Shown here piece after piece: positions 3,526 through 45,727 of a stretch of 64,000 nt of DNA (its first letter is position 1; each line of letters starts with the position of its first letter). The notes below the pieces were generated by a model that searched no databases, was not told the DNA's origin, and saw nothing but the letters and a program-made list of their open reading frames with translations. A program made the position numbers and the translations under genes. The DNA is from an uncultured Rivularia sp. (GTDB lineage: Bacteria > Cyanobacteriota > Cyanobacteriia > Cyanobacteriales > Nostocaceae). The DNA lies in contig OY762007.1 in the NCBI GenBank assembly GCA_963665115.1, positions 4,160,001 through 4,224,000 of the forward strand, in the 5' to 3' direction.

Positions 3526-5213
3526 AAATATGTTTTATCTTTAAAATAAAATACCCTAAACTGTTTGTAGAGAACAATTTTAAGCAAATTAAATGTTCTT
3601 TACAAGCAGTTATTTTTTAGGGCATATTTAGGATGAAAAAGGTGCATCAAGAAGATTTAGATGATTTATTTGAATATTTTGAAGTTCCGGCAAGCACCGA
3701 TGGAAGCTACATGGGTACACAAGCTCAGGTGAAAGCAACGCAAGAATATATGGATAAAATAATTGAGGAGAAGCTTACAAATATAAATGCAAGACTCAAG
3801 GCGAGTCAAAGCAAGGTAAGTATTAAAAAAGTTGGAAACACTCTACAGTTAAGAGCTACTCTTCCGTTAAAACCTGGCGATACTAATAAATCGGGGAGAA
3901 CTAGAAAGCAATACTTTATCTCTTTAAGTATTCCAGCGAATTTGAACGGATTAAAAACAGCTGAAGAAGAAGCTAATGAATTAGGCACGCTGATTGCAAG
4001 AAAATGCTTTGAATGGAATGACAAATATCTAGGTATAAATACAAATAAACAGGAGTATAAAACTTTTAAGCAAGTATTAGAAACTTTAGAAAATGAATAT
4101 TTTAGTACTAGAAAAAGAACTATTAAGAGCGAGCATAGTTTTTGGCATTTGTATAAACGATATAAACAATATTTTGAATCAAATTTACCAGTTACCAGTG
4201 AAAATATCATTACAATTATTAGAAATATTGGTTCCCCGACATCTCGCGACCAAGCAATCAGAGTCGCTAGGGTATTTTCTCAAATTCATCAAATAGAAGT
4301 CAATTTCAAAAATTTAAAATTGCCTGTAGTCCCTAATGATAGGTATATACCTTCAGATATTGAAATTACAGAAGCTTTTGGAAAATATAAGGTAAAAGGC
4401 AATAATACAAAAGTAAGGAAAGACTATCGAAACTCTTGGAAGCTACACAGGTTAGTATTTGGACTAATTGCTACCTATGGTTTAAGACCGCGTGAGGTAT
4501 TTAATCAACCCGATTTAGAATGGTTTTTAAGTGATGAAAATACCGATTGTACTTGGAAAGTTCATAAGTCAAATAAGACAGGTTACAGAGAAGTTTTGCC
4601 TTTTATACCAGAATGGGTAGAATTATTTGAATTAAAAAATCCAGAGGCTATTTATTTATTGAATCAAAAAATAGAACAGATAACAAGCTTTCATGAATTA
4701 TCACACTTAGTTCAAACTAATGCTCGATGGTTTAGACGCATTCTAGATCTACCGTTTGAACCTTACGATTTAAGGCACGCTTGTGCGATTAGAGCGCATA
4801 TTCAAGGTTTACCAATCAAAGCATCAGCAGATAATTTGGGGCATTCTGTAGAAATGCATACTAAAGTCTATCAGCGTTGGTTCTCTTTAGAAAATCGCAA
4901 GAAAGTTATGAAATCTGCAATCAACAAAAAATCAGATGAACAGTTAGAAGCTGAAAATATCAGGTTAATGGCAGAAAATCAACAACTGAAATACCAATTG
5001 GATAAATTACGGCAAATTTCATCAAATATTCGCTAAAAGTTCTTCAATTAGGGTAGATTTAGGATTCATCAAACCCAAGCATAATTAGCAATTTGATTTA
5101 CTGTTTTAATTTTTAGGGAGCTTGTTTAGGGTAAATTCAGGTTACTCGACTGCGGAGGTTTGCGAAACTACTGTTATATAGATTTTTCAGCAGTCGAAGA
5201 ATATCACGATTAA
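3519..5213. mobile_element. nifD excision element 1 (1,688 bp; direct repeat CGATTAA at 3519-3525 and 5207-5213)
   Basis: Excision restores GGT CCG ATT AAG GAC ATG = GPIKDM in frame; recombinase is the only gene inside. Confidence 0.92.
3633..5036 (+). CDS. XisA/XisC-like tyrosine recombinase of nifD element 1
   Basis: YGLRPRE, YDLRHACAIR, LGHSVEMHTKVYQRWF motifs. Confidence 0.93.
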   Translation: MKKVHQEDLDDLFEYFEVPASTDGSYMGTQAQVKATQEYMDKIIEEKLTNINARLKASQSKVSIKKVGNTLQLRATLPLKPGDTNKSGRTRKQYFISLSIPANLNGLKTAEEEANELGTLIARKCFEWNDKYLGINTNKQEYKTFKQVLETLENEYFSTRKRTIKSEHSFWHLYKRYKQYFESNLPVTSENIITIIRNIGSPTSRDQAIRVARVFSQIHQIEVNFKNLKLPVVPNDRYIPSDIEITEAFGKYKVKGNNTKVRKDYRNSWKLHRLVFGLIATYGLRPREVFNQPDLEWFLSDENTDCTWKVHKSNKTGYREVLPFIPEWVELFELKNPEAIYLLNQKIEQITSFHELSHLVQTNARWFRRILDLPFEPYDLRHACAIRAHIQGLPIKASADNLGHSVEMHTKVYQRWFSLENRKKVMKSAINKKSDEQLEAENIRLMAENQQLKYQLDKLRQISSNIR

Positions 5214-6343
5214 GGACATGATCCACATCAGCCACGGTCCTATCGGTTGTGGTTTCTACTCTTGGTCTGGTCGTCGTAACTACTACATTGGAACCACAGG
5301 TGTTGACTCCTTTGGTACAATGAACTTTACTTCTGACTTCCAAGAAAGAGACATCGTTTTTGGTGGAGATAAGAAGCTCGCCAAAATGATTAACGAAATT
5401 GAAGAACTCTTCCCCCTCAATAGAGGCGTATCAGTTCAATCTGAGTGTCCCATCGGTTTGATTGGTGATGACATCGAAGCGGTTGCTAAGAAGGCATCCA
5501 AAGACCTTGGTAAGCCAGTTATCCCCGCTCGTTGTGAAGGTTTCCGTGGTGTGTCTCAGTCTTTAGGACACCACATCGCTAACGATGCTATTCGTGACTG
5601 GGTATTCCCTGCTGCTGATAAAGCTCACAAGGAAAACACCCTTGATTACGAACAAGGTCCTTACGATGTATCAATCATCGGTGACTACAACATCGGTGGT
5701 GACGCTTGGTCTAGCCGTATCCTCTTAGAAGAAATCGGCTTGCGCGTAGTCGCTCAGTGGTCTGGTGATGGTACTCTCAACGAGATGATGCTCACACCGA
5801 AGGTGAAGATGAACTTGATTCACTGCTACCGTTCGATGAACTACATTTCTCGTCATATGGAAGAAGCTTATGGTATTCCCTGGATGGAATACAACTTCTT
5901 CGGACCTACCAAGATTGCTGAATCTTTGAGAGCGATCGCCGCTAAGTTCGATGAGAAAATCCAAGAGAATGCTGAGAAGGTTATTGCTAAGTACCAGCCT
6001 ACAGCTGATGCAATCCTTGAAAAATACGGCGCTCGTCTAAAAGGCAAGACTGTTGCTTTGATGGTTGGTGGTTTACGTCCTCGTCACGTAGTACCTGCAT
6101 TCACAGACTTGGGAATGGAACTTGTAAGTACTGGTTATGAATTCGGTCATAACGATGACTACAAGCGTACTACCAACTACATTGAAAACGGAACCATCGT
6201 TTACGATGACGTAACTGGTTACGAATTCGAGCAGTTTGTAAAAGGACTTAAGCCCGACATCGTTGGTGCTGGTATTAAAGAGAAGTATGTCTTCCAGAAA
6301 ATGGGTCTTCCCTTCCGTCAAATGCACTCTTGGGATTACTCCG
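5207..6343 (+). CDS. nifD: NifD fragment 2
   Basis: [13 protein letters not shown]...SECPIG...LIHCYRS...[10 protein letters not shown]. Confidence 0.96.
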
Positions 6344-6947
6344 AGCTTACTAATGGTAGTAGAAGTAATACAGAGTGAGCTTTTTAGGGGTTATAAAATT
6401 AAGTAGATTAACTTTAGACTTTAGATTAAATATTAGATTTTAATTACAATAAGATATTTTTTGACCGACACTATAACAAGTTTATTTTATCAAGTTATTT
6501 GCATCAATTAATATTGCGTGTTCTGGAAACTGTAAATTGTAAACCTTTATTGACTACGATTTTTTAGACTAATTTTTTATTGGCTTCGTGATTTTTAATA
6601 GTTTATGCTCTTCCTAAATCTTCTTTTTCAGCTATCAGAAACTTCGTAACAATTAATTAGTAGATTTCACGTATAAATTAAGCTTGTTAAATTTTAAAGC
6701 TTTGTATTATAAACAATAAATTAAAATTTGGCAATAGTCTGAGGTATTAAAAGTGGGTAGATTTTATTTAAATAGAGTATGCTGACAAGCAAGCAAATAG
6801 CAAATACAACAAACAAGAATAAATCATAAATTAATCAATACTATCTTCCATTGGGTTGATACTGCAATCTTTATCTGAGGCTAAATAAAGTAGAAGTATT
6901 GAGCAATCGGGAAAGATTTTCTTGTCAATGAATGAATATGTTTATTT

Positions 6948-7742
6948 TTGACAAGACAAATTATAATGTTTAATATGATTAATTTACATAACTTAATAAC
7001 ACCCAAATCGATGTCTCTGATTATTGGAACCAGGATTCATAGTGGCGGTGGTACCCATACACCTAACTTTTCTCGATTAAAAAAATGGTGCGATCAAGTA
7101 TTAGAGTACGCCGATTATGTGGTGATAGCGACCGACGAACACCTGTTCAACGACATTGCCAATAATGTTTTGGGTTTCGGGAACCGAGTACATTCCCTTT
7201 TGGTTAACCCTTGGAAAGGATTCGCTCATCCTTTAAATGCAATCGTCTATGAAGCAACTTCTTTGGGTGGCAGCAAGCTTTTACTGCAAAGTCCAGAAGT
7301 TTACGTTAATTCGGCAGACATAAAAATACTAGATTTGCATCTAACCGCAGATACATTAGTAGCCGGAGCAAAGATGATTTTAAGTCATGGAGGAGATGCT
7401 GGAGTTAAACCTATAGATGGAATGACTTCACCTTGGAATACTTTGGCTTTGTGGAATTTATCAAAATTGAATATAACGGGATTTTTAGGAGTTTCCAGCG
7501 GACTTCTTAAAGATATACCTGGAGGAATGGAAGAAGTGACAACTATTTCGCTACTGCAACAGCTTTATCCAAATGAAGCTCATGCCAAATTAGTGACTTT
7601 ATCACAGCTAAAGTGGATTAACGATTGGAAGGATTTAAAACGCAAAAAGTACCACGAACAGAAAATGTCCTCAAAATTATCCCGAGCAGAAATACAATTA
7701 AAATACTCCAATATTCAACGGGGAATCGTTACTGTTTTGTAA
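6948..7742 (+). CDS. Hypothetical protein, possibly GT-A-like fold (start may be 7011)
   Basis: 264-aa ORF ending 3 bp before the next gene; pattern YVVIATD...PLNA...LLLQSPEV, no DxD. Confidence 0.55.
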   Translation: MTRQIIMFNMINLHNLITPKSMSLIIGTRIHSGGGTHTPNFSRLKKWCDQVLEYADYVVIATDEHLFNDIANNVLGFGNRVHSLLVNPWKGFAHPLNAIVYEATSLGGSKLLLQSPEVYVNSADIKILDLHLTADTLVAGAKMILSHGGDAGVKPIDGMTSPWNTLALWNLSKLNITGFLGVSSGLLKDIPGGMEEVTTISLLQQLYPNEAHAKLVTLSQLKWINDWKDLKRKKYHEQKMSSKLSRAEIQLKYSNIQRGIVTVL

Positions 7743-7745
7743 ATC

Positions 7746-9077
7746 ATGAATCAAGAACGTTTTGTGAATTGGTCGGGGGAGTACCAATGCATACCTAATT
7801 ACGTACATCACCCTGCAACAGATGAAGAAGTTAAGGATATTGTTTGTCAAGCTATCAAACGGGGAAGCAAAATTCGAGTATTTGGTAGCGCCCATTCTCC
7901 TAGCGATATGGCGATGAGTGATGAGGAATTAGTTTGTCTTGATGGTTTAAATACGATTAAAAATATTGACTATGAAAATCAAACCGTTGTGGTTGAAGCG
8001 GGAGTTACGATTCATGATTTGAGTCAAAGTTTGGCCAAATATGGATTAGCATTACCCAATTTAGGCTCTATTTCGGCTCAAACAATTTCCGGTGCAATGG
8101 CAACTGCAACTCATGGAACGGGTTTGAATTATGGTACAATGCCGACAATTATTGAAGAAATAACTTTGGTAGATGGGAAAGGAGAAATTGTCAAGATTTC
8201 CCAATATGAAAATTCTCAATTATTCAAAGCGGTTCAATGTCATTTAGGAAGTTTGGGATTAATTACAGAATATAAATTAAAAGTCACGGAAAGTTTTGAT
8301 TTAGAAGTAAAAGAGCAACCGCAAACTTTAGAAGCCGTATTTGAGAAGTTACCGGAGTCTTTGAAATCCGACCACTATCGTTTTTGGTATTTACCTCATG
8401 CAGATATGGCTTGGGAGTGGAATGCAACTCGTAAATCACCGGAAAATATTACAGATACAGAAAACAATATTGTACGCCGTTTGGGGAACTGGTATCAACA
8501 AAAGCTTATTGGCTATTATGCTTTTGAATTTTTATTATATTTAGCTGCTTATAATCAAAATTTGATTCCTGCTATCAATCGTTGGTATGCTAAACAAATG
8601 TTTAGTCAACCGAAGCATTCACGGGGTGATAGTTTAAGTCAATTTAATTTTGATTGTCTATTTAAACAGCGGGTAAATGAATGGGCTATTCCCATAGAAT
8701 ATACCGTTCAAGCTATAGAAGAAATTCGCAATTTGATTCAAAATAAAAACTATAAAGCTCATCTTCCCATTGAAGTACGTTTCGTTAAAGGGGATGATAT
8801 ATGGTTAAGTCCTTGTCAAGGAAGAGATAGCTGCTACATCGGCATCATCGGTTATATGCCATACGGAAAATATATTGATTGTCAAGATTATTTTGATGAT
8901 TATGAAAAAATAATGCTTAGTTTTGATGGTCGTCCCCACTGGGCTAAAAGATTTGGCCCAGATGCAGAAAAATTAGCACAAATATATCCCCATTGGAAGG
9001 ATTTTCAAAAAGTACGCCATCAACTCGATCCAGAAAATCGCTTTGGTAATTCCTATAGCGATCGGGTGTTGGGGTAG
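7746..9077 (+). CDS. FAD-linked aldonolactone oxidase (L-gulonolactone oxidase/ALO family)
   Basis: GSAHSPSD FAD-attachment His motif, ATHGTG, PIEVRFVKGDDIWLSPC, GRPHWAK. Confidence 0.9.
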   Translation: MNQERFVNWSGEYQCIPNYVHHPATDEEVKDIVCQAIKRGSKIRVFGSAHSPSDMAMSDEELVCLDGLNTIKNIDYENQTVVVEAGVTIHDLSQSLAKYGLALPNLGSISAQTISGAMATATHGTGLNYGTMPTIIEEITLVDGKGEIVKISQYENSQLFKAVQCHLGSLGLITEYKLKVTESFDLEVKEQPQTLEAVFEKLPESLKSDHYRFWYLPHADMAWEWNATRKSPENITDTENNIVRRLGNWYQQKLIGYYAFEFLLYLAAYNQNLIPAINRWYAKQMFSQPKHSRGDSLSQFNFDCLFKQRVNEWAIPIEYTVQAIEEIRNLIQNKNYKAHLPIEVRFVKGDDIWLSPCQGRDSCYIGIIGYMPYGKYIDCQDYFDDYEKIMLSFDGRPHWAKRFGPDAEKLAQIYPHWKDFQKVRHQLDPENRFGNSYSDRVLG

Positions 9078-9187
9078 AGGGGGTAGAGGGGGTAGAGGGG
9101 GTAGAGGGGGAGAATAAAAATAACTTTGAGATTTACTTAAAATCCAAAATCCAAAATCCAAAATCTAAAATCTAAAATCTAAAATCA
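9070..9187 (+). repeat. Tandem short repeats (GGGGTAGAG)n and (AAATC[C/T]A)n
   Basis: Seen directly between the two oxidoreductase genes. Confidence 0.85.
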
Positions 9188-9188
9188 A

Positions 9189-10436
9189 ATGACAGATATT
9201 TTAGTTGTCGGAACGGGGGAATATGTTACGGGTTTTGTTCGGGGAGCGGCTGCTGATTCTGATAAAAGCGCTGGTGTAATCGGATTGGTGCTTTTTGATT
9301 TGAGAAGTCGTGGTAAGGTAAATCAAATTGCTTTGTGCGGTCGTGATGGCAAGACTTTTCCGGGTATTCGCGGTCATTTTACTGAGAAAATTGCCAAGCA
9401 ATATGAAGGGATAGATATTAACGTAAATACTTTTCCCGGTGACGATCAATATAATCCTCAAGCTTATCAAACTGCGATCGAGAAAATGAAACCTGGGGAT
9501 GGGGTGATTGTCGTCACACCCGATGATACTCATTTTGAAATGGCGATGACAGCTATTCGTCATGGATTGCACGTTTTGGTTGTAAAGCCTTTGGTGAAAA
9601 CTTTAGAAGAGCATCAGAAATTAATAGAAGTTGGGAAACAGCATAACGTACTGGTGGCAATCGAAATGCATAAAAGATTTGACCCCATGTACTCCGACGC
9701 TCGCGATCGCGTTCGTAGTTTTGGAGATTTTAGCTATATGAATAGCTATATGAGCCAACCTCGGAGTCAGCTGCACACTTTTGGTAAATGGGCTGGAAAA
9801 TCTTCTGATATCAACTACTATCTGAATTCCCATCATATCGATCTATTGGATTGGATGGTCAGCGATTTTGCTAGACCAATTAAAGTAACTGGTTTGGGTG
9901 CTACCGGAGTTGCTAAAAACGAGTTTGACATAAATACCGAAGATACTATTACCACTACAATTCAATGGGAAAATATTCAAAGTGGGAATTTAGGAATTTC
10001 CGTTCATACTGCTTCGTGGATTGCTCCGAAATCTGACGTTCATTCCCAACAACGTTTCTTTTATATGGGACATCAAGGTGAATTACAAATTGACCAAGCT
10101 CATAGGGGTTATTCATCCGCAACAGTTTCCGGAGGATATGCTAGTATCAATCCTTTATTTATGAAATACGAACCTTCCAACGGTAAATTTGCCGGTCAAA
10201 GAGCTTATGGTTATCAAAGCATTGAAAAATTTATTGATGCTGTAGCTGGTATTAAGGAAGGAGCAAAACCAGAAGATTTTGATAACGATATAGCAACCGC
10301 TGGGAAAACATTACAAACAACAGCGATTTTAGAAGCAAGTCGTATTAGCTTGGATAATGATAATTCGTCAGTTGAAATTGAATATAATTCTTCTGAATCG
10401 CTGATTCCAGAAAAATTAAAAAAGGTTAAAGGTTAG
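9189..10436 (+). CDS. Gfo/Idh/MocA oxidoreductase, D-galacturonate reductase (fungal GaaA)-like
   Basis: VGTGEYVTGFV, LFDLRSRGKV, HKRFDPMYSDAR, SYMSQPRSQLHTFGKWAGKSSDINYYLNSHH, TEDTIT, NPLFMKY. Confidence 0.8.
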   Translation: MTDILVVGTGEYVTGFVRGAAADSDKSAGVIGLVLFDLRSRGKVNQIALCGRDGKTFPGIRGHFTEKIAKQYEGIDINVNTFPGDDQYNPQAYQTAIEKMKPGDGVIVVTPDDTHFEMAMTAIRHGLHVLVVKPLVKTLEEHQKLIEVGKQHNVLVAIEMHKRFDPMYSDARDRVRSFGDFSYMNSYMSQPRSQLHTFGKWAGKSSDINYYLNSHHIDLLDWMVSDFARPIKVTGLGATGVAKNEFDINTEDTITTTIQWENIQSGNLGISVHTASWIAPKSDVHSQQRFFYMGHQGELQIDQAHRGYSSATVSGGYASINPLFMKYEPSNGKFAGQRAYGYQSIEKFIDAVAGIKEGAKPEDFDNDIATAGKTLQTTAILEASRISLDNDNSSVEIEYNSSESLIPEKLKKVKG

Positions 10437-10672
10437 AGGTCAAAGGTTAAAGGTTAAAGGTTAAAGGTTAAAGGTTAGAGGTCAAAGTTTTTTAAATCGT
10501 ACTATTTAGTTTTGAATCTCTTTTTCCGTTTGTATCAAAATTATTTTACCTCCTCTTCCTTCTCTTTCCTCTGCGTCCTCTGCGGTTTATAATCTACTTT
10601 ATTTTCATACAAACAAATTAATGTATCTTCCGTCTTGTATAGTAAAAAACCGTATCTTATATAATAAAAACC

Positions 10673-12374
10673 ATGCAAAATAACAATCATATTAGTGAAA
10701 AATATAATAAATATTTAGAATACGAAAATCAAAGATTTAAAGAATTAGCCGAGCAAAATGTAAATAGCTGGGCTGATGTTTGGCAACAGTCAGTAGATAA
10801 ATATCCCGAAAAACCAATTGTTCGTGAAGTGGGTTCGTCAAAACCTTGGACTTATCAAGAACTTGACCGTGCAGCCAATAAAATTGCCACTTGGGCTATT
10901 TCTTTAAATCAAAATAATAAAAATAAAAATAAAAAATATATCGGAGTTCATCAAAGTAACAGTGCTGTTTTATTAGCAACTGTATTGGGATTAGCTAAAG
11001 CGGGAATTACCGCAGTTTTATTTAATGTTAGAGAATCCGAGCAGAAATTATCAACTTTAGCGTCTGATTGTGGAGTTGAAATAAATATAGGTAAACCAAT
11101 TCCATCAGTAAAGAGCTTCGATCCGAATTTAATTCTGTCAGCAGAATGGGAAGGAAGAATTTCCAAAGAGCATCGCGATCGCATTACTATAGAAGATCCA
11201 GTAGTAATTATCTTCACCAGCGGCACCAGCGGACGTAGTAAACCAGCACTTTTTAATCATCGTCGCATGATTGGAGCGGGAATTGCTTGGTCTTTAAGAA
11301 CTGAAATGACACAGGAAAGTAACTGTTATATAACTTTGCCTTTATATCACGGTAACGGTTTAGCAGTAGCTTTTGCTAGTTGTGTAGAAGCGGGAGCTTG
11401 TGCTGTAGTTAGAGAGAAATTTTCGGTACGAGCTTTTCTAGATGATGTGCGTAATTATAATTGCGATTCCGTTGTTTATATAGGAGAACTTTGGCGATAT
11501 TTAGCTAATAGTCCCCAAAAACCGGATGACAAAGATAATCCTTTAAAAGTTATTTTTGGCAATGGTTTGTCATCTGGATTGTGGGAAAATACTATTGAAA
11601 GATTTGGGATTGAAAGAGTTGTAGAACATTTTGGTGCTACAGAAATGCCAGCATCAGCTTTGACAAACTGGACGGGAAAACCTGGTTATTGTGGTTTTAT
11701 TCCTCCAAATCATCCCAATGCTGAAAATGTAGTGTTGGTTGACGAACAAGGAAAACCCGTTGCAATGGGAGAAATTGGACAAGCTTTGTTACGGGTTCCC
11801 GGCGATCGCTATCGAGGTTATCTCGACTCTTCACTTGATGAAAGTAAAATTTGGGAAAATTTATTGGAAACCGGGGGATTTATGGTGGTGTTCTGGAGAC
11901 TTGTTATCTAGAAATGCTGACGGTTTTTTTGCATTTATCGATCGTATGGGAGATACCTTTCGTTGGAAAGGAGAAAATGTTGCTTGTCAGGAAGTAGAAG
12001 AAGCAATTTTGTCAACTGGTTTAGTTAAAGAAGCGGTAGTATATGGAGTTGAGATTCCCAAAGCATCGGGTAAAGTTGGGATGGCATCTCTTTTAACCAT
12101 AGAATCTTTTTTTGAAGGTAATATTGATAATTTTTTAAATCAACTCAAAGAACTTTTACCTCCCTATGCGATTCCCCATATTATTAGATTAGTAGAACAG
12201 CATCATCAAACAACTTCTACAATGAAAATTCTTAAATCCCAATTACAGAAACAGGGATTTCAACAAATTGATAAATATCCGCATTTTATTCTTGTGGAAG
12301 GTAAGTATGTTGTTTTGACAAGAGATTATCTATCAAAGTTGGAGAATGGTAAGTTAAATTTCGGATTTCGCTAG
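10673..12374 (+). CDS. FATP/very-long-chain acyl-CoA synthetase-like adenylating enzyme (one +1 frameshift near 11870)
   Basis: IFTSGTSGRSK, TLPLYHGNG, FGATE, DRMGDTFRWKGENV; two ORFs join as LLEPGDLWWCSGD after removing one base. Confidence 0.85.
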
Positions 12375-12429
12375 AAAATAGAATCCCTTCCCCTCTCCTT
12401 AATAAGGAGAGGTTTTGAGTATAAATTAC

Positions 12430-12633
12430 GTAGGTTGGGTTAGACGCGCAAAATATTTGATTATTAACGAACAAATTCGATTAGCGTCGTAACCCAACAT
12501 TTCTATTGTTAATTAAATAAGAAATACTTTTTAAAATTTGAATTGAATTATCTTAGATATCGAATGTTGGGTTACGACGCAATATAAGTTATGATGAATA
12601 ATTTAATTTTGTCGTGCGTATAACCCAACCTAC
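12430..12633. repeat. GTAG-type REP doublet / MITE-like element, copy 1
   Basis: GTAGGTTGGGTTA...TAACCCAACCTAC inverted ends with internal palindromes; near-identical copy at 21219-21555. Confidence 0.8.
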
Positions 12634-12748
12634 AACTATTGATTTAACAGAATATCCTTTACCTCCAATCGAACTGATATTTAATCAATTAATTTATATG
12701 GTTAGTAATGCGTAGGTTAGGTTAGACGTACAAAGATATTTAATTATT

Positions 12749-12883
12749 GGCGTTGCTGAATAAAAATATGAAATTACGTTTTCATATTGAAAGAGACGTA
12801 GTAATATCCCCTGTTTTTACACAAGTTTCATGCTTACTACAAAATGTAGGTAAATATAATTCATAGCTTAATTCAGCAACGCT
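12749..12883. mobile_element. MITE nested in a REP-like palindrome (12712-12925)
   Basis: TIR GCGTTGCTGAAT/ATTCAGCAACGC; 8-bp target duplication TAATTATT at 12741-12748 and 12884-12891. Confidence 0.75.
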
Positions 12884-13168
12884 TAATTATTCACTAGTAA
12901 ATCGCTGGGAGCATCGTAACCCAACATCAGAATTTTGATTAAATAAGTAATATTGAATGTCATTGCTAAAAGTCTCTCAACTTCTATTAAATGTAATATC
13001 TACTGACAGTGGTAGTAACACTGACCTAACTATCGGCGCTGAAACACTGTGTTTTTACGGTTAGATCCAAGCAACTTGTAAAGCTATACTTAATCGGTGA
13101 ATTTACGAAGATTAGCGTACTTAAAAATTTGAGCTTTTAGTAAAAACTATTAATTGTATAAATAAATT

Positions 13169-15062
13169 ATGACATTCGCCAAGTCGAGCTTAAGTATATA
13201 CGATCTGCTTGAAGGTAGTGCTAAAAAAAATCCCGAGAATATAGCTATTGTAACTACTCAAAAGTCTCCTCTCACTTACAGCAGTTTGCTTAATGCTGTA
13301 AACGATGTACGAAGCAAGTTAAACCTAATGGGTATAGGTCGTAATGACCGAGTAGCTGTGGCTTTACCTAACTCCCCAGAGATGGCTGTGACTTTTTTAG
13401 CTATTGCTTCTTGTGCGACTTGTGCCCCTCTCAATCCTAATTATCGTGAATCGGAATACGATTTTTATCTTTCCGATTTAGATGCTAAAGCCTTAGTCTA
13501 TCAGTCGGGAATTGCTGAAGCTGCTGTGGAAGTAGCGAAACAAAAAGGTATTTCCTTAATAGAACTTTCTACAGAAAAAGAAGCCGTATCGGGTATTTTT
13601 CAATTGACGGTTGGGGAAGCGAAGAATCCAATTCAAAGCGGTATTGCTCAATCAGAAGATGTGGCCCTTGGTATTGCATACTTCCGGAACCACCTCTCGT
13701 CCCAAAATGGTTCCACTCACCCATAGTAATCTTTGCACCTCTGCTGAAAATATTTCCTCCACACTTAATTTAGTAGAGAATGACCGTTGTCTGAATGTAA
13801 TGCCTTTATTCCACATTCACGGACTTATAGGAGCTTTACTCTCATCGCTGAATGTTGGAGCAAGTATAGCTTGTACACCAGGATTTTACGCTCCTAATTT
13901 CTTTAAATGGGTCGAGGAATTACATCCTACTTGGTATTCAGCAGTTCCCACCATGCATCAAGCAATTTTGGCGCGGGTAGAGACGAATAGTGAAATTATT
14001 GCTAGTTCTCAAATCCGCTTAATTCGTTCTTCTTCTGCTCCTTTACCACCTCGAATAATGACAGAATTGGAACAAGTTTTTAATGTTCCGGTAATTGAAT
14101 CTTATGGGATGACAGAAGCCTCTCATCAAATGGCTAGTAATCCTCTTCCTCCCTTTATACGTAAACCTGGTTCGGTAGGGATTGCAGCAGGGCCAGAAGT
14201 TGCAATTATGGATGATACGGGTAAATTATTGTCATCTGGAGAAATTGGAGAAGTAGTAATTCGGGGAGTCAATGTTACTCAAGGTTACGAAAATAATCCC
14301 CAAGCAAACAAAACTGCTTTTACTAATGGTTGGTTTCGGACGGGTGATTTGGGTTATTTAGATAAGGATAATTATCTATTCCTCAAGGGTCGAATTAAAG
14401 AAATTATTAACCGTGGTGGGGAAAAGATTTCTCCTCGTGAAGTTGATGAAGTGCTTTTAGATCATCCAAACATTGACCAAGTTGTTACCTTTGCGGCTCC
14501 TCATACTCTTTTGGGTGAAGATGTTGCTGCTGCTGTGGTTTTAAAACAAGGTGCATCATTAACAGAACTAGAAATCAAGGAATTTGCAGCATTAAAACTA
14601 GCTGATTTTAAAATTCCTCGTGTAGTGTTATTCGTAGATGAAATACCGAAAGGTCCTACAGGTAAAAGACAGCGTATAGGTTTAGCCCAAAAATTAGGAT
14701 TAACAGCTTCCGATCCTACTGCAACTACAGAATATGCACCTCCGACAACAGCTATAGAAGAAAAATTAGTTCAAATTTGGTCTAAGGTATTAGGCGTTGA
14801 AAAGGTAGGAATTAACGATAACTTTTTCGGGTTAGGAGGAGATTCTATCTTAGCGGCTCAAATTATCAATAGAGTTCGCGAAGTTTTGCAAGTTGAGTTA
14901 TCTTTTCTAATCTTCTTTGAACAACCTACTGTTGCGAGTATGGCAATCAAAATCACTCAAAATCAGGCTGAAGAAGTAATGTCTGAAGAATTAGATGATG
15001 TATTAAACAACTTAGAATCTCTTTGCGAGTCAGAAGTTGAAAAACTGTTAGGACAGATGTAG
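13169..15062 (+). CDS. Oxalate-CoA ligase (AAE3/Pcs60)-like adenylation domain fused to a carrier protein (one +1 frameshift at CCC 13665-13667)
   Basis: LHTSGTTSRPK, VMPLFHIHGL, WYSAVPTMHQ, RSSSAPL, YGMTEASHQMASNPLP, PCP motif LGGDSIL. Confidence 0.82.
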
Positions 15063-15099
15063 TTAAATAATACCTATTACAATTAATTGCAACTAGATT

Positions 15100-15933: not shown

Positions 15934-15960
15934 AAACTAATTATATTTTTGTTAATAAAC

Positions 15961-34686: not shown

Positions 34687-35965
34687 CTAATCTCTATAAA
34701 CCTTCTCCATCCTCAATTTCTCAACCTCCAACTTCAATCTTTGATTTTCTTCTTTAATCACCTCTACTTCATTCCTTTTACTCAAAGCCGTATCAATAGC
34801 TAACTTCCGCATATCCAAGGAAAACCAACGCTGATAAGTTTGAGTATGCACCTGTACGCTGTGACCCCAAATTATCTGCTGCTGCTTTGATGGGAATTCC
34901 TAATATATGCGCTCGAATTGCCCAAGCATGACGTAAGTCATAGGGTTTAAAGTCTAATCCAATTTTACGAAACCACCAGCTAACTCGTTGCGTTAATGCG
35001 GTTATCTGTGCATGATTTTTTTGATCTTTTTTATCGATTGCATCTACCAGCATTTCTAAATATTTGGGATTTCTTAAATTAAAGTCTGCAATCCATTGTT
35101 TATATAAAGGTAGTGCTTCTCTTTCCCCCGTTTTGCAATCTCTATCTACCTTCCAGGTCATATCTGCATTATCTTCGCTTAACCACCACTCAACGTTGGG
35201 GTTGATAAACAATTCTCGCGGACGCAAACCGTACACCGCAAGCATCCCATATATCCAGCGCCATAGTTGCCAGCTATCTTTAACATTTTGATTAACTTGT
35301 TTGCCTCTAATGTTAAGGTAATCTGCAAATTTGATAAATCCTGTAGATATTTCTGCATCGGTGGGTATCTTACGAGAATTATGTTCCGGCATTTTGGAAT
35401 ATTTTGATAAATCAATCTCGATTTTGAACGTTGTGCAAAATGCTGATATTGCTCTGGCTGCATTGTATCTCGCCCATTCTTTATCGATTTTTTCAATTGC
35501 ACCGATCAGATTTTCGGCGATCGCCAAATCTTGAGAATTAGTATATCGTTTGGTTCGAGTAAAATAATAGTAAAAAGTATGTTCGCTTTTAGTAGTGCGT
35601 TGATGGGTTTGAAAATATTCTAATTCAAATTTATCCAATAATTCACCTATAGTTTTAAAGTCTTTATTTCTTGCTTCTCTTCCTAGATATTTATCATTCC
35701 ATACAAAAGTTTTACGAGCAATTAATTTACCTAACTCGTATGCTTCCTCCTCAGCAGTTTTTAAACCATCTAAATTAGCCGGAAGATTTAAACTAATATT
35801 GTATTGCTTTTTACTCGTTCCTTTTTTATCTATATCTCCTGGTTTACTTGGTAAAGTAGCACGCAATTGTAAACTGCCGTTAGATTCTCTAATAGTAACT
35901 TTTGTCTTGGCTAATTTGAAACGCTGGTTTACTTTTTCTAATTCTAATAAGAGTTTTTCTTTCAT
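34687..35965 (-). CDS. xisA: nifD element recombinase XisA (+1 frameshift at CCCC 34865-34868)
   Basis: RESNGSLQLRATLP, YDLRHAWAIRAH; removing one base restores LGHSVQVHTQTYQRWF and a stop at 34687. Confidence 0.92.
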
Positions 35966-36105
35966 ATGTAATTTTTACGGTTATAGAACTAGTTTGTAGT
36001 AAAGACTTTAGTATTCATAGGGTTAAAGCCCTTACTACGAACAAAAAATCTCAATCCTAGAAATGCATCGTTTTATTTAGGCTAAAGCAAATCGTAAAAT
36101 AAATA

Positions 36106-36152
36106 TGTAACAAAAGAACAATGTTTAATGCTTACATTGTTCTTAAAAAACA
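36106..36152. promoter_or_regulatory. Three tandem TGT-N9-ACA boxes (16-bp period) upstream of xisA; NtcA-type sites
   Basis: TGTaacaaaagaACA a TGTttaatgcttACA t TGTtcttaaaaaACA; NtcA is known to bind such repeats upstream of Anabaena xisA. Confidence 0.75.
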
Positions 36153-36184: not shown

Positions 36185-36341
36185 GGATTACTCCGGTCCT
36201 TATCACGGTTATGATGGCTTCGCTATCTTCGCTCGTGACATGGATCTAGCAATCAACAATCCTTCCTGGAAATTGATTGGAACTCCTTGGAAGAAAGAAG
36301 AAGCTGCTGCTACTAATCAAGCTGCTAAAGCTTCTGTTTAG
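36185..36341 (+). CDS. nifD: NifD fragment 3 (C-terminus)
   Basis: [51 protein letters not shown]. Confidence 0.95.
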
Positions 36342-36452: not shown

Positions 36453-36724
36453 ATGCCACAGAATCCAGATAAAATTCAAGATCACGTAGAGCTATTTCAC
36501 CAGCCTGAATACCAAGAGCTTTTCGAGGGCAAGAAGAAGTTTGAAGGTGGACACGACCCCCGAAGAAGTTAAGAAAATTGCAGAATGGACTAAATCTTGG
36601 GAATATCGCGAAAAGAACTTCAGCCGTGAAGCTTTGACCGTAAACCCTGCTAAAGCTTGTCAGCCTTTAGGAGCAATCTATGCTGCTGCTGGCTTTGAAG
36701 GTACATTACCTTTCGTCCAAGGCA
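36453..36724 (+). CDS. nifK: NifK fragment 1 (+1 frameshift in C5 run 36557-36561)
   Basis: MPQNPDKIQDHVELFHQPEY...NPAKACQPLGA...GFEGTLPFVQG. Confidence 0.93.
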
Positions 36725-38561
36725 ATAAATTTCTAATCTTGAAACACTTATAATCAGAAAAGTTTCAATCTTTTCAAGATAGCAGTTGCTTTAATCTTGC
36801 TTCTTAACTAACTATTCTTTTAATCCAAAAATCGATAAAAGTACTAATTGTAATATATAAATCAAGCTTTATTAAGTTGCTTATAATTTGCTTAATTAAA
36901 ATTGTAAATATTACAAACAAACATAATCTTTATCATGTTCGTTGAGAACAACTATGGATGTATATATAAATATTGAAGCTAAATTTAGGCTAATAATAAA
37001 AAAACAGGTCGAATAACCTGTTAATAACTACAAATATTACGCTTAGGTTAATTCATCTGTATAGTTAAACGTAATTTAGTTAATTCCAATTCTAATTCCA
37101 GGTTTCTTTTACGTAAAGCTGCTATTTCATCTTTCAATTTATCAATCCGATCAATTTCTTCAAAGGTTTGATTAAATGCTGTACGTCTATTTTCTAAGCT
37201 AAACCATCGCTGATAAGTCTTAGTATGCTCTTCCACTGTATGACCTAAATTATCAGCAGCAGCTTTAATCGGGACTCCTTGTAATTGTGCCCTAATAGCG
37301 CAAGCATGGCGTAAATCGTAAGGTACAAAGGGTATTTTTGTTGATGAGAAATATTTAGATATAACGCTAACTTTATCAGTGAGTTGTCTCTCCGAATTCC
37401 AAATAGAAAATGATTTTAATGCATCTATACCTTCAAAATCATTTTTTAAATTTAAAAGTTGAATCCACTCGGGTACGAAAGGAAAAACTTCTCTGTATCC
37501 AGTTTTATTTGATTCATGTACTTTAAAAGTATTGTAATTATTCTCGGATGACATTAACCAGTTTAAATCTGGATGATTAATTATTTCTCTAGGGCGTAAA
37601 CCGTAAATAGCTAATAGTTTATAGATAAACTTCATAGCTCTGTTTTTAGGAATAGTCTTACTACCATATCTAGATATTGTTTTTATTCTTTCATCAAACA
37701 ATGAGATTGATTTAGCTATCAGACTGTCGCTAGGTATATCTCTGTGTTTTGGCTTTTGCTTTAATTTTAAATTATTAAAACTAGCTTCAATTTGTAATTC
37801 CTGGCAAATATAATCAACAGCCCTAATTGTTTTATTCCGGGTATATGGTTCTTGTATAGATAATATTCTTTGCTTTAAAGTATCAGCGTTTATCATTTCA
37901 TCACCCATCAAAGCTTTATGAAATGAGTATCTTAAACTATGGAAAGTATGTTCGCTTTTTAAAGTTTTCTTTCTCTTGCTAAAGTATCTATCTTCTAATT
38001 GATTGTAAAATTCGTCATAAGTAATATTTTTATTTTTTAAAGCTTGTTGCCCTAAATATTTATCAGTCCACTGAAAAATGTGACGAGCGATTAACTTACC
38101 TAACTCACAAGCTTCTTCTTCAGCCGTCTTTAGCCCGTCAAAACTAGCTGGTATCCCCAGACTTATTTTATATTGCTTCTTGTCTTTAGCTTGCTTGTGA
38201 GTATCACCAGGTTTGAGTGGAAGTGTGGCGAGTAATTGTATTGCTCCTCCTGTAGCAGTCAAAGTAACCTTACACTTGCTAGCTTTTAGTCTTTGATTAA
38301 CTTCGATCAATTCCTCTTCAAATTTCATATCAAAATGTTTTTTTGTCATGTCTGAGATATTCTTCATACCTCTATAGGTTCCATCAGAAGTGCTAGGAAC
38401 TTCAAAGTCGCTAAAAACCTTGTCCTGTATGTCTTTCATAAATTTGCTTAAATATTGCTTAAAAATTGGAATGTTCTACTTGAACTAACATTATTTGAAA
38501 TAAGTTTATAGCAAACATTATAGACTTTTTAATGCTTTAAACAAACCATAGTTCCAAGGCA
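36716..38561. mobile_element. nifK excision element 1 (1,837 bp; direct repeat TCCAAGGCA at 36716-36724 and 38553-38561)
   Basis: Excision restores PFVQGSQGC. Confidence 0.93.
37048..38439 (-). CDS. XisA-like tyrosine recombinase of nifK element 1
   Basis: YGLRPRE, YDLRHACAIR, LGHTVEEHTKTYQRWF. Confidence 0.93.
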   Translation of the reverse strand: MKDIQDKVFSDFEVPSTSDGTYRGMKNISDMTKKHFDMKFEEELIEVNQRLKASKCKVTLTATGGAIQLLATLPLKPGDTHKQAKDKKQYKISLGIPASFDGLKTAEEEACELGKLIARHIFQWTDKYLGQQALKNKNITYDEFYNQLEDRYFSKRKKTLKSEHTFHSLRYSFHKALMGDEMINADTLKQRILSIQEPYTRNKTIRAVDYICQELQIEASFNNLKLKQKPKHRDIPSDSLIAKSISLFDERIKTISRYGSKTIPKNRAMKFIYKLLAIYGLRPREIINHPDLNWLMSSENNYNTFKVHESNKTGYREVFPFVPEWIQLLNLKNDFEGIDALKSFSIWNSERQLTDKVSVISKYFSSTKIPFVPYDLRHACAIRAQLQGVPIKAAADNLGHTVEEHTKTYQRWFSLENRRTAFNQTFEEIDRIDKLKDEIAALRKRNLELELELTKLRLTIQMN

Positions 38562-38586
38562 GTCAAGGTTGTGTGGCTTACTTCCG
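38553..38586 (+). CDS. nifK: NifK fragment 2 (34-bp micro-fragment, QGSQGCVAYFR)
   Basis: tc CAA GGC AGT CAA GGT TGT GTG GCT TAC TTC CG supplies exactly the residues missing between fragments 1 and 3. Confidence 0.93.
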
Positions 38587-40436
38587 ATTCAATTTAATAA
38601 TCTTTGAAATATTTAAAAATAAAACGTTGAGAAATCATATTTTGTTTCTCACTACTATTTCACTATAATTACTAGCTAGATAGACCTAATCTTCAATAGA
38701 AACAACAAACTTACTTGCAATTATTACACTATTTTTCACCTAACTATTAAATTTAACAAAATCATTGAAAATAGGAAGTATAATTAAAATTGTCTTTAAG
38801 TGAATTCAAAGAATAAATTAGTAGATTATAAATTATAGCAAGCAGTTTTTATGACCATCGAAAAAACAAAAAGTAGGCATTCTCAGCCTACTTTAAAAAA
38901 GGGTGTTAAGTTTGATAGCAAATAATCACATCATCTGAGAAAATTTAAATCTAGCTAATTCAGTTTCTAATTCAGCTATACGCTTTTTAAGACCTGTATT
39001 TTCCACTTCAAGTTCATTAAGTCTAGACATCTGATTAAAAGTTTGATTAAAAGCTTTTCTTCTATTCTCCAAACCGAACCATCTTTGATAAACTTTAGTA
39101 TGCATCTCTACAGAATGACCTAAGTTATCGGCTGCGGCTTTAATAGGTACTCCTTGCAGGTGTGCCCGAATAGCACAAGCGTGACGTAAATCATATGGAG
39201 AAAAAGAGATTCCGCAACTTTTAAAGCTACCTGCTATCTTATTTACTTTGCTAGATAATTCAATTGCAGTTCCCTTGCTAAAAGAATACTCTTTTAACAT
39301 ATGTAATCCTTTTTGATTTTTTACATCAAAAAGTTCAATCCATTCAGGTACAAACGGAAAAACTTCCCTGTATCCAGTTTTATTTGATTCATGTACTTTA
39401 AAAGTATTGTGTTCGTTTTCGGGAGATACAAGCCAATCCAGATCGGGATTATTCATCACTTCTCTAGGACGTAAACCATAAACAGCTAACAATGCATAAA
39501 CTGTTTTATACTTCAACCAATTATTTTCATATTTTTTTTGACCTTTGACTTTTTCATTAAAATGTTTTTCAAAAAAAAGTATTCCTGTTTCAATCTCTTT
39601 ATCGGTAGGTATCAATCTTTGTTGAGGTTTTGTTTTAGGTATCAAGTCTGATAAATTAGCTTTAATCCCTAATGAGTTAAGAATTATCTTACCCATAGTA
39701 ACCATTGTCCTTTTGGATGCATCATATGGTACTTTCTTAATTTTATCCCTAACTGAAAACTCTGTAATTACTTCACTCCCAGAAAAAACTGCTCTGTATC
39801 TTCTTTTGTAGCTAAGTAAAGTTCCTTCACTTTTGATAGTTCTTTTTCTCTCCGAAAAATATCTTTCCTCAAACTGTTCGTAAAACTCATCAAATGTTAT
39901 GGTCTTTTTCTTCTTCGCTTGAACTCCTAAATATTTATCATTCCAAATAAAAGTTTTACGAGCGATTAACTTTCCTAATTCCTGTGCTTCTTCTTCAGCA
40001 GTTTTTAAGCCATCGAAATTAGCTGGAATACCTAACGATATAGTGTACTGCTTTTTATCTTGACCTTTTGAATCAGTGTCACCGAGTTTCAATGGGAGAG
40101 TAGCCCGTAACTGAATAGTTCCACTCCTAGATTCTATGCTTACTTTTGTTTTACCAGCTTTCAATCGTTTATTAATTTCTGTTATTTCTTGCCCGAACTT
40201 GGCTTGTACGTGTTTACGAGTTTCACTCACGTGTCTTTTGAGTCCTAAATAACTACCGTCGGTAGTTGCTGGAGGTTCAAAGTCTTCAAAAACCTTTCCC
40301 TGTATATCTGCCATGTTTACACTAGATGTACACTAAAATATTTTCAGTTCGCTACAAACAAGTAAACAAACTTTCATTTGATCTCTGTAAACATTTTAGG
40401 TTTAATTAGACTTCTTACTCAAGTGGAATACTTCCG
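38579..40436. mobile_element. nifK excision element 2 (1,850 bp; direct repeat TACTTCCG at 38579-38586 and 40429-40436)
   Basis: Excision restores CVAYFRSHLTRHFKEP. Confidence 0.93.
38926..40314 (-). CDS. XisA-like tyrosine recombinase of nifK element 2
   Basis: YGLRPRE, YDLRHACAIR, LGHSVEMHTKVYQRWF. Confidence 0.93.
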   Translation of the reverse strand: MADIQGKVFEDFEPPATTDGSYLGLKRHVSETRKHVQAKFGQEITEINKRLKAGKTKVSIESRSGTIQLRATLPLKLGDTDSKGQDKKQYTISLGIPANFDGLKTAEEEAQELGKLIARKTFIWNDKYLGVQAKKKKTITFDEFYEQFEERYFSERKRTIKSEGTLLSYKRRYRAVFSGSEVITEFSVRDKIKKVPYDASKRTMVTMGKIILNSLGIKANLSDLIPKTKPQQRLIPTDKEIETGILFFEKHFNEKVKGQKKYENNWLKYKTVYALLAVYGLRPREVMNNPDLDWLVSPENEHNTFKVHESNKTGYREVFPFVPEWIELFDVKNQKGLHMLKEYSFSKGTAIELSSKVNKIAGSFKSCGISFSPYDLRHACAIRAHLQGVPIKAAADNLGHSVEMHTKVYQRWFGLENRRKAFNQTFNQMSRLNELEVENTGLKKRIAELETELARFKFSQMM

Positions 40437-43537: not shown

Positions 43538-43700
43538 CCCTATTCCCCATATTTCCTATTTATTGTTTCCAATTGCCCATTCGTTATTCTTAATTCCTAA
43601 TTCCCAATCCCAATTTAAAATCTTTGACCTCTAACCCTATTCCCCATATTTCCTATTTATTGTTTCTAATTGCCCATTCGTTATTCTTAATTCCCAATTT
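43538..43700 (+). repeat. Duplication of ~60 bp upstream of nifN
   Basis: ccctattccccatatttcctatttattgtttc.aattgcccattcgttattcttaattcc at about 43538 and 43635. Confidence 0.75.
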
Positions 43701-43728
43701 AAAACCTTTAACCTCTAACCTTTAAATT

Positions 43729-43848
43729 ATGGCTATTGTCGCAACTCAAAATAAACCAGTTATAGTCAATCCTCTCAAGCAAAGCCAAACCTTGGGTGCA
43801 ACTTTAGCCTTTCTAGGATTGAAAGGTATGATACCACTCGTCCACGGT
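43729..43848 (+). CDS. nifN: NifN fragment 1 (40 codons)
   Basis: MAIVATQNKPVIVNPLKQSQTLGATLAFLGLKGMIPLVHG; absent from ORF track. Confidence 0.93.
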
Positions 43849-43962
43849 ATTCGAGGTTGACTTAAAACCCTAATATCTCGTAAACTGTTTGCCTCTAACT
43901 ATTTAGTTTAACTAATAGTTTAAGCTGAACATTTACAAGATTAGTCAATATTTAGTCAACAG

Positions 43963-45351
43963 ATGGATGATATACAGGGTAAAGTTTTTAACGATTTTGA
44001 ACCTACTTCTTATACAGACGGTAGCTACTTGGGGATGGTAAAACATAGCAAGGAATCTAAAAAACATTATGAAATGAAGTTTAAAGAAGAGTTAGTCAAA
44101 GTTAATCAGCGACTACGTTCTAGCAAAACTAAGGTAAGCATAGAATCGACTAAAGGGGCATTACAGCTTAGAGCTACATTGCCACTCAAGCCAGATGATA
44201 CTCATCCTCAAGGCAAATTGACTAAGCAATATAAAATAAGCTTGGGAATCCCCGCTAACTTTGAAGGCTTGAAAACTGCCGAGGAGGAAGCTTATGAATT
44301 AGGTAGATTGATTGCTCGTAAAATGTTTGTTTGGAATGACAAGTATTTAGGTACAAAAGCTGTTCAAAAAAACAATATTACTTTTGATAAATTTTGCGAA
44401 CAGTTAGAAGAAAGATTCTTTGAGAAAAGAAAACGTACTCTTAAAAGTGAAAATACATTTGATGGCTTCAAGTACCCTTTTAAAAAATATTTTTCTGGTA
44501 GTGAAATTATCACTATAGATGCAATAAAGAAAAGAGTACTTACCACGACACAGCCATATGTAAGGAAAAGGGCCATAGTTGCTGCTTGTTTTATATGCAA
44601 GCAATTAGACATCGAACATTCATTCAATGATCTAAAGTTGCCGCTCATTCCATCAAAAAGGAATATTCCTAGTGATGAGGAAATAAAGATATCTTTCAAA
44701 CTTTTTGATGAATACTTTACGGCATTACCTCTAAAAAGAGAACAAAGTGTTCAGAAAAATAAATTGCATAAAATAATTTATATATTAATGAGTGCATATG
44801 GATTAAGACCTAGAGAAATTTTAAATCAACCCGATATTGATTGGTTTGTATCAAAAAATAATGCTCAAAAAACTTTTAAAGTTCATGAGTCGAACAAAAC
44901 TGGCTATAGAGAGGTATTCCCTTTTATGCCTGAGTTATTGGATCTGGTTGATGTTAATTCTGACAGTGATTTGATTAATAGTTTAAGGAATGCTATTAAA
45001 TGGCAAGATATAAAGCTTTTAACCGCCAGAGTTACTGAAATAAGTAAATATTTTTCAAAAGTTGGGATACCATTTAAGCCTTACGATTTACGTCACGCTT
45101 GCGCTATTCGCGCACACCTGCAAGGAGTTCCGATTAAAGCCGCTGCTGACAATCTAGGACATTCGGTTGAAATGCACACAAAAGTTTATCAGCGGTGGTT
45201 TGGACTTGAAAACAGAAGAAAAGCTTTTGAACAAACGTTTGAAGACATAAACGAGATAGATAGATTGAGAGACGAACTAACGCGAGCTAAGCAAGAAATA
45301 GCCGATTTAAAGTTAAAATTAGCTAGGACTAAGTTAGAAAAGATGGTGTAA
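43963..45351 (+). CDS. XisA-like tyrosine recombinase of the nifN element
   Basis: YGLRPRE, YDLRHACAIR, LGHSVEMHTKVYQRWF. Confidence 0.93.
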   Translation: MDDIQGKVFNDFEPTSYTDGSYLGMVKHSKESKKHYEMKFKEELVKVNQRLRSSKTKVSIESTKGALQLRATLPLKPDDTHPQGKLTKQYKISLGIPANFEGLKTAEEEAYELGRLIARKMFVWNDKYLGTKAVQKNNITFDKFCEQLEERFFEKRKRTLKSENTFDGFKYPFKKYFSGSEIITIDAIKKRVLTTTQPYVRKRAIVAACFICKQLDIEHSFNDLKLPLIPSKRNIPSDEEIKISFKLFDEYFTALPLKREQSVQKNKLHKIIYILMSAYGLRPREILNQPDIDWFVSKNNAQKTFKVHESNKTGYREVFPFMPELLDLVDVNSDSDLINSLRNAIKWQDIKLLTARVTEISKYFSKVGIPFKPYDLRHACAIRAHLQGVPIKAAADNLGHSVEMHTKVYQRWFGLENRRKAFEQTFEDINEIDRLRDELTRAKQEIADLKLKLARTKLEKMV

Positions 45352-45381
45352 CTGCAACTCTAATCGCTATATAGCTATTTC

Positions 45382-45410
45382 AAAAGTAGGTGAAAAACAC
45401 CTATTTTTTT
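45382..45410 (+). terminator. Terminator-like hairpin after the nifN-element recombinase
   Basis: TAGGTG-aaaaa-CACCTA plus T-run; similar hairpins follow the nifK recombinases (37002-37022, 38869-38894). Confidence 0.6.
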
Positions 45411-45727
45411 GTGCTTACAACGATTTTAATAGCTAAAACTGTATTTATTATAAGTAGTAAAAATAATAAGCACGTGGATATGTATCTATTATAAAAACTG
45501 CTCAGAATGAACTATTTTGATTGTTTTTATTTTCTAAAAAATAATTAATATAATATCTATTGTCAAATTAGTAAATAATCAGTAAACAAGTAATTAAATT
45601 AATTTACTGTTTTAACTGACGTTTATCTTTTTCAGGTGATGAAAATTAGTCAATTCTTAGTCAACAGTTAATAGCTGTATGCCAGAATGCTTGAAGCAGT
45701 AATATTTTAGCTATCCTTAGTTTCGCA

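Follow-up and report, generated by a model that had tools for sequence, protein, structure and literature searches.

Paired 11-bp-period repeats are putative arm-type sites of XisA/XisC-family recombinases in interrupted nif genes of a heterocyst-type cyanobacterium

The repeats described here flank small excision elements in a stretch of 64,000 nucleotides (hereafter the window) from an uncultured Rivularia sp. (contig OY762007.1; G000:C1:4160001-4224000), which is part of the nif cluster of a heterocyst-type cyanobacterium. Direct repeats (cores) delimit five elements in the window: E1 and E2 in nifD, E3 and E4 in nifK, and E5 in nifN. E1, E3, E4 and E5 are excision elements of the XisA/XisC family, 1.7–1.9 kb long. 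Pairs of short repeats at their ends are probably arm-type binding sites for the N-terminal domain of the tyrosine recombinase encoded by each element, as judged from sequence comparison and structure prediction. The arm sequences appear to sort the elements into about nine classes, which suggests a class code rather than a one-to-one code.

Six repeat units in each element

The initial annotation had reported a repeat pair just before the recombinase start codon of each small element and a second pair at the far end. All nine motif positions given there matched the sequence exactly. Read in the direction of the recombinase, the repeats form one family of 8-bp units, T-W-A-G-N-N-N-N, paired with an 11-bp period. 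Each element has three pairs, all in one orientation. Counted inwards from the cores, the near pair is found at about 92 bp from the near core, the far inner pair at about 80 bp and the far outer pair at about 158 bp from the far core. The reported far-end pair was thus confirmed but incomplete, as the far end has two pairs, and the extra ones at 5126, 36785, 38725 and 45568 had been overlooked. The pairs in the window are the following.

3617-3635, + strand, E1 near pair TTAGGGCA/TTAGGATG, overlapping the ATG
5048-5066, + strand, E1 far outer pair TTAGGGTA/TTAGGATT, 159 bp before the far core
5126-5144, + strand, E1 far inner pair TTAGGGTA/TCAGGTTA, 81 bp before the far core
36078-36085, − strand, E2 degenerate arm pair, single TTAGCCTA
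38443-38461, − strand, E3 near pair TAAGCAAT/TAAGCAAA
36785-36803, − strand, E3 far inner pair GAAGCAAG/AAAGCAAC
36876-36894, − strand, E3 far outer pair TAAGCAAA/TAAGCAAC
40318-40336, − strand, E4 near pair TTAGTGTA/CTAGTGTA
38648-38666, − strand, E4 far inner pair ATAGTGAA/GTAGTGAG
38725-38743, − strand, E4 far outer pair TTAGGTGA/ATAGTGTA
43941-43959, + strand, E5 near pair TTAGTCAA/TTAGTCAA
45568-45586, + strand, E5 far outer pair TTAGTAAA/TCAGTAAA
45646-45664, + strand, E5 far inner pair TTAGTCAA/TTAGTCAA
57873-57891, + strand, xisC near pair TAAGGGAA/TTAGGGAA; the far pair TTAAGGAA/CCAGGGAA lies beyond the window

Over the whole genome (8.69 Mb), the E1 (nifD-1) pattern was found twice, at the two ends of the element. 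The E3 (nifK-1) pattern was found three times (two ends and one other site), the E4 (nifK-2) pattern four times (two ends and two others), the E5 (nifN) pattern three times (two ends and the start of another element's recombinase), and the xisC pattern once. Since these patterns were picked after the data had been seen, the fair test is one across the family.

Conservation of the layout across the family

The family set comprised 23 genomes of the same genus, a few more distant ones, and this genome. It gave 189 open reading frame (ORF) hits among the matches listed, of which 165, being long enough and having upstream DNA, were kept; 151 were unique and fell into 39 clades. A pair was scored when at least 7 of 8 positions matched at a given lag in the last 48 nt before the start, using 120 anchored recombinases from 34 clades. 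A lag of 11 was found before 93 recombinases (28 clades). Lags of 7–10 and 12–18 were found before 0–5 of the same 120, and shuffled sequences gave about 1–3. As background, 22 of 1316 other ORF starts had a lag-11 pair. Serine recombinases and an unrelated tyrosine recombinase of this genome had none at their starts (3/3).

The far ends were examined likewise. Automatic core calling gave many chance hits, and cores were set by hand for 28 clades. Far cores were found at 95 loci, three of which were discarded as chance hits, leaving 92 elements from 25 clades; at 14 loci no far core lay close enough to be reached, and at three there was no near core. A matrix derived from the near units recovered 91 forward pairs at the far ends of the 92 elements, versus two reverse pairs. 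The forward pairs cluster 53–83 and 142–171 bp before the far core. Far units were better predicted by the near units of the same element than by foreign units (25 clades, p = 1e-5), with ranks blurred at some TAAG loci where the unit register was off by one base; re-registered units were used for covariation. Spacing and units are kept while the flanking DNA diverges. The near arms of L086, L090, L074 and L045 comprise three or four units, spaced by 11 bp, where the others have two. The nifH elements with the 8-bp core discussed in PMC3610870 that are found in G184, L215 and L217 have TTAGGGTA/CTAGGGTA near and related units far.

Beyond the genus, such recombinases are present in 124 of 150 family genomes. 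A near pair of the TTAGGCTA type is found at all 20 anchored XisA loci, and a TWAGGGAA near pair at 29 of 30 anchored XisC loci. Where the far core of an XisA element could be reached (13 elements; a fourteenth row was a chance hit), a TTAGGCTA-like unit occurs at about −80.

Covariation of the units with recombinase residue 70

Covariation was examined with 37 types (the 34 clades, three of them split by hand) over 426 alignment columns. For unit position 2, the top column was residue 70 (QL-R-ATLP), with a z of 16, the next column reaching 4.9. Residue 70 was also the top column for unit position 5, and residues 91 and 63 were top for position 6. Arg70 occurs with T at unit position 2 in 25 of 26 types, and another residue occurs with A in 11 of 11, so that 36 of 37 types agree. 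Judged by the far units only, 23 of 26 types agree. On a tree of residues 130–425, the state at position 70 changes 10 times, which is no fewer than in shuffles, and 7–8 of 8 independent pairs vary in the same direction and none in the opposite one (p 0.008–0.016). In one clade-5 element, the core is kept, Arg70 is replaced by Val, and the units at both ends have become TAAG. Among 17 hold-out loci from other genera, 16 agree: all 11 with Gln70 have TAA, and all 5 with Arg70 have T. The covariation between repeats and N-terminal domain residues that the initial annotation had proposed to look for is therefore present at unit position 2. In a tree of the N-terminal domain, weakly supported and including column 70, the types without Arg70 group better (4 changes versus 10), which hints at domain shuffling.

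The E5 recombinase was modelled with AlphaFold from 92 sequences, with a predicted local distance difference test (pLDDT) score of 87.8. A single-sequence fold reached a pLDDT of 41.8 and was not used. The predicted N-terminal domain has a three-strand-plus-helix fold (strands 59–63, 66–74 and 87–97, helix 100–118), and the model also shows an additional segment at the N terminus and a long coiled coil at the C terminus. The strand positions place the covarying residues on strands, and their alternating pattern suggests that they face the DNA. The top structural match was full-length lambda Int (Z 13.4, root-mean-square deviation 15.7 over 309 aligned residues, model 48–428 on chain 8–356), tied with several recombinases aligned without the N-terminal domain. 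Atlas neighbours include Arm-DNA-bind_2 and Arm-DNA-bind_5 (score 0.91). The fixed geometry, the predicted arm-binding fold and the protein–DNA covariation together support the proposal, already made in the initial annotation, that the repeats are arm-type sites.

It might be argued that the repeats arose by chance in AT-rich DNA, or that they are neutral remnants of an ancestral island integrase site. A distantly related integrase beside tRNA-Cys in this genome (G000:C1:1766247-1767700) does have a similar array, TTAGTCAC, TTAGTCAC and TTAGCTAC, with a 12-bp period, and the XisA element of the window has degenerate arms. The array suggests that the arms descend from island integrases. That they are mere relics or chance repeats is hardly credible, as their spacing and units outlast the divergence of the flanks and all copies change together with the protein.

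Promoters and palindromic boxes beside the near arm

The segment between the near core and the near pair has two further kinds of motif. A sigma70-like −35/−10 promoter was found there in 19 of 34 clades; among control windows the figure was 14 of 200. Palindromic boxes of consensus WGTTY-N5-RAACW lie at about −55 and −24 from the near pair. The pattern WGT-N9-RCW is present at 106 of 120 loci, and spacers of 8, 7 and 10 give 10, 21 and 25. Of 20 XisA loci, 17 have three adjacent TGT-N9-RCA boxes, at −56, −40 and −24 relative to the arm. The palindromic boxes adjoin the predicted −10 box. The near pair follows some 50 nt downstream of the −10 box and covers the ribosome-binding region. The motifs in the window are listed below.

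3562-3576, + strand, E1 box A (TGT-N9-ACA type), preceded by a −10-like TAAACT at 3557-3562
3594-3608, + strand, E1 box B
36106-36152, − strand, E2, three adjacent TGT-N9-ACA boxes
38472-38517, − strand, E3 boxes B (38472-38486) and A (38503-38517)
40346-40422, − strand, E4 box B (40346-40360) and sigma70-like TTGAGT-18-TAAAAT (40393-40422)
43857-43886, + strand, E5 sigma70-like TTGACT-18-TAAACT, predicted recombinase promoter
43886-43931, + strand, E5 boxes A (43886-43900) and B (43917-43931)

The consensus of NtcA (VF1/BifA) sites is TGT-N9/10-ACA. The factor on the palindromic boxes would most likely be NtcA. In Anabaena 7120, the supplement of PMC3898017 gives NtcA chromatin immunoprecipitation (ChIP) regions upstream of xisA (strong) and of xisC. 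The xisA region as printed there spans the three boxes as well as the arm pair. By hand count, the stated location of this region falls in the middle box, although this may merely be its midpoint. Three adjacent VF1 sites are mentioned in the title of a reference in PMC4874684. The XisA loci analysed here have adjacent TGT-N9-RCA boxes, on which, by hand count, the ChIP region of Anabaena 7120 is centred. The present boxes differ in that their consensus is WGTTY-N5-RAACW and not GTA-N8-TAC, and in that they occur in nearly all elements of the family and not at xisA alone.

These motifs raise the question of whether the repeats themselves are sites for a host transcription factor or a nucleoid protein, as the T-W-A-G common to all units and the presence of NtcA upstream of xisA and xisC might indicate. 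However, recombinase residues 70, 63 and 91 covary with the variable bases in independent lineages, the far-end pairs are not near any start codon, and the separate, invariant palindrome is better suited to a host factor. Recognition by such a factor in place of the recombinase is considered very unlikely.

It is also highly improbable that the repeats act mainly as autorepression operators, or as a ribosome-binding signal, with little part in synapsis. The near pair abuts or overlaps the ATG, the AGGGA units resemble a Shine-Dalgarno sequence, and IntS of KplE1 represses itself from attL in the account given in PMC2951348. Against this, four of the six units come after the stop codon, where their distance from the far core is fixed, TTAGTCAA and TAAGCAA are unlike ribosome-binding sites, and the near pair lies well downstream of the predicted −10 box. 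A secondary role of the near pair in autorepression, as suggested in the initial annotation, may exist.

The preferred interpretation, that of recombinase arm sites with a host factor on the boxes, nevertheless has several observations against it. E2 has no clear arm pair at either end, and the far outer pair is not recognisable in the 13 XisA elements of other genera. In clade 4, the near units are TTAGGGAA but the far units are TTAG(C/T)AAA. In XisC, a standing exception to the covariation, Arg70 usually goes with TAAG as the first near unit. The hold-out set spans only about four lineages, and its one discordant locus has Tyr70 with TTAT. The deviation of the lambda Int superposition is high, and the N-terminal domain was modelled only within the full protein. 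No arm-binding family is among the 25 Pfam families listed for the 92 aligned proteins, which is not taken as absence. Finally, the canonical NtcA site GTA-N8-TAC was found in only 1 of 120 near arms.

Shared arm classes

The initial annotation had attributed to each element its own repeat, and to the repeats an orthogonal code preventing cross-recombination. The four small elements of the window do have four different units, but TTAGTCAA also precedes another recombinase in the same genome: the nifN element and an element upstream of nifB both use it. Across the family, about nine hand-defined unit classes serve 34 clades, TTAGTCAA being present in eight. Elements of one class reside together in 12 of the 15 genomes with at least four fetched elements, and 39 of 358 co-resident pairs share a class. 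Such sharing is no rarer than expected by chance (40 observed versus 47 ± 10 expected, p = 0.27). This argues against a strict code, in which each element would have its own arm sequence and the arms alone would block cross-action. Some evidence does favour such a code, namely the four different units of the window, the overall best match of far ends to their own units, and the difference in units between the sister clades 6 and 11 at one nifK site in opposite orientation. With classes shared in this way and no avoidance among co-residents, a strict code is unlikely. The milder claim that the arms help to pair the correct ends is plausible from the overall match of far to near units, although for most clades the units of another clade tie with or beat their own at the far end. 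The sister recombinases mentioned above are L107/L052 (clade 11) and that of E3 (clade 6).

The cores differ between clades, and residues around 130–260 are the least conserved part of the recombinase. It is therefore presumed that specificity from element to element comes mostly from the core, including overlap homology between cores, and from the variable core-binding domain. The arms would still matter because the cores by themselves occur 29–2094 times in the genome.

Elements of the window and of the same genome

The cores and recombinases of the window are as follows.

3519-3525, + strand, E1 (nifD-1) near core CGATTAA
5207-5213, + strand, E1 far core CGATTAA
3633-5036, + strand, E1 tyrosine recombinase, 467 amino acids
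6333-6343, + strand, E2 (XisA-type nifD element, 29.85 kb) far core GGATTACTCCG, no clear arm pair alongside
36185-36195, + strand, E2 near core GGATTACTCCG
34793-35965, − strand, xisA-type recombinase ORF, frame shifting near 34865
36716-36724, + strand, E3 (nifK-1) far core TCCAAGGCA
38553-38561, + strand, E3 near core TCCAAGGCA
37048-38439, − strand, E3 tyrosine recombinase, 463 amino acids, Leu at position 70
38579-38586, + strand, E4 (nifK-2) far core TACTTCCG
40429-40436, + strand, E4 near core TACTTCCG
38926-40314, − strand, E4 tyrosine recombinase, 462 amino acids
43842-43848, + strand, E5 (nifN) near core CCACGGT
45728-45734, + strand, E5 far core CCACGGT
43963-45351, + strand, E5 tyrosine recombinase, 462 amino acids, Arg70
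57758-57777, + strand, hupL element near core; the far core is beyond the window (G000:C1:4226435)
58031-59347, + strand, xisC-type recombinase, 438 amino acids, without the N-terminal extension of many relatives

With E1 and E2 removed in silico, nifD is restored to 502 codons, and with E5 removed nifN is restored to 436; nifK is open over 474 codons once its cores are joined. The recombinases of E1, E3, E4 and E5 are 39–47% identical to the XisA and XisC of the window, and the XisA/XisC-type recombinases of the window are 39–58% identical among themselves. R282, the YDLRH motif, H400 and Y409 are invariant, and XisAC_N is an Atlas neighbour (score 0.95). Among ORFs of at least 90 amino acids, no second one on the same strand, and no separate excisionase gene, was seen in the small elements.

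Only 17 bp of nifK separate the E3 and E4 cores (38553-38586), so that excision of both elements has to spare this very short segment between them. The assembly has one-base frameshifts at window positions 34865 (xisA) and 36557 (nifK). Sequencing runs X2 and X3 lack both extra bases, and run X4 lacks the one in nifK and a base at 34867; the frameshifts thus probably reflect errors of assembly or are peculiar to one sample. In the window, xisA and xisC have no N-terminal extension like that of relatives (35965-36100 and 57892-58030), and short repeat-like insertions are often found between the arm pair and the ORF in the xisA and xisC clades. The 30-kb XisA element contains a nonribosomal peptide synthetase/acyl-CoA ligase cluster and an EF-G paralog (window 6948-20226 and 23247-25337); EF-G paralogs in interruption elements are noted by Hilton (PMC4874684). 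The nifN element (43842-45734) is also present in G001 and G003. Contigs of run X2 break at both nifN cores, which may hint at excision, with no joined contig among the matches listed. No excision joint at the cores was found among the matches listed for four runs, in which contigs drop rare variants.

The element upstream of nifB (G000:C1:4129637-4132049, core ATGAGATA) belongs to the family and lies about 30 kb before the window, in non-coding DNA 247 bp upstream of the gene. G007 has an empty site, 97% identical to the rejoined flanks. This element may block nif transcription until it is excised, and surveys based on genes would miss it. The nifH gene (G000:C1:4136798-4163040) is split by three elements, with a frameshifted family recombinase, a tyrosine recombinase of another type, and a serine recombinase; the last extends into the start of the window. 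Elements also interrupt coxA and hupL in this genome.

Comparison with known systems

The elements share with the XisA and XisC elements of nifD and hupL described in PMC4874684 and PMC11249958 a recombinase near one end, short direct repeats, and restoration of the nif or hup frame. E2 has as its core the 11-bp nifD repeat known from the literature. These two surveys differ from the present view in taking the direct repeats as the recognition sequence, and the words "arm" and "tandem" are absent from their main texts. The nifN gene is not in the table of interrupted genes of Hilton 2016 (PMC4874684), and no interrupted nifN is reported for the strains compared in Uesaka 2024 (PMC11249958). 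No description of arm sites in Xis elements was found in the literature searched, in which subscription journals and survey supplements are largely uncovered, so that an earlier mention is possible; "arm-type" did not occur among the XisA papers matched. A scan of viral contigs with the nifN recombinase gave no match.

With the arm-binding recombinases of the lambda Int, Tn916, CTnDOT, P2 and SXT groups treated in PMC8138268, the proteins share a predicted three-domain architecture with a three-strand-plus-helix N-terminal domain, the topology given there for arm-binding domains; XisA is not mentioned in the part of that article consulted. Both systems also have accessory direct repeats, placed to either side of the core at some 80–160 bp. 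The elements differ by their 2+2+2 layout of 11-bp-period pairs in one direction. They differ also in that no separate excisionase gene was seen in the small elements, and by the long coiled coil and extra N-terminal segment of the model. In lambda, IHF sites are found where the TGT-N9-ACA-like boxes sit in these elements. The IntS system of KplE1 (PMC2951348) likewise has the integrase promoter in an attachment arm, as predicted here, and arm sites next to the start. Its arm site overlaps the −10 box, whereas here it is the palindromic boxes that adjoin it.

Proposed mechanism and significance

In the proposed mechanism, the N-terminal domains would hold the three pairs of same-direction units, while the core-binding and catalytic domains would act at the two cores. 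Bridging of arms to cores would form a lambda-like excision complex, in which the arms may single out the true ends where a 7–8-bp core has hundreds to thousands of copies in the genome. A host factor, most likely NtcA, on the boxes over the predicted recombinase promoter may bend the near arm or gate the promoter, and may thereby couple transcription or DNA bending to heterocyst development. Excision would restore the host gene.

How Xis recombinases choose the correct short repeats is stated as an open question in PMC3610870, where the 8-bp nifH repeat has 111 genomic copies. The arm pairs would provide a concrete and testable answer, with exact positions, including those of the model XisA and XisC elements, and the covariation names the recombinase residues to change. 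For tool building, dozens of distinct cores are on offer but only about nine arm classes. A broader reading, put forward tentatively and open to real doubt, is that the family forms a library of lambda-like recombinases in which a readable arm code (residues 61, 63, 70 and 91) is shuffled against core specificity, and that one host factor on the shared boxes, likely NtcA, bends the DNA and switches on all excisions in heterocysts. The shared boxes would offer a route for a single developmental regulator to control many excisions.

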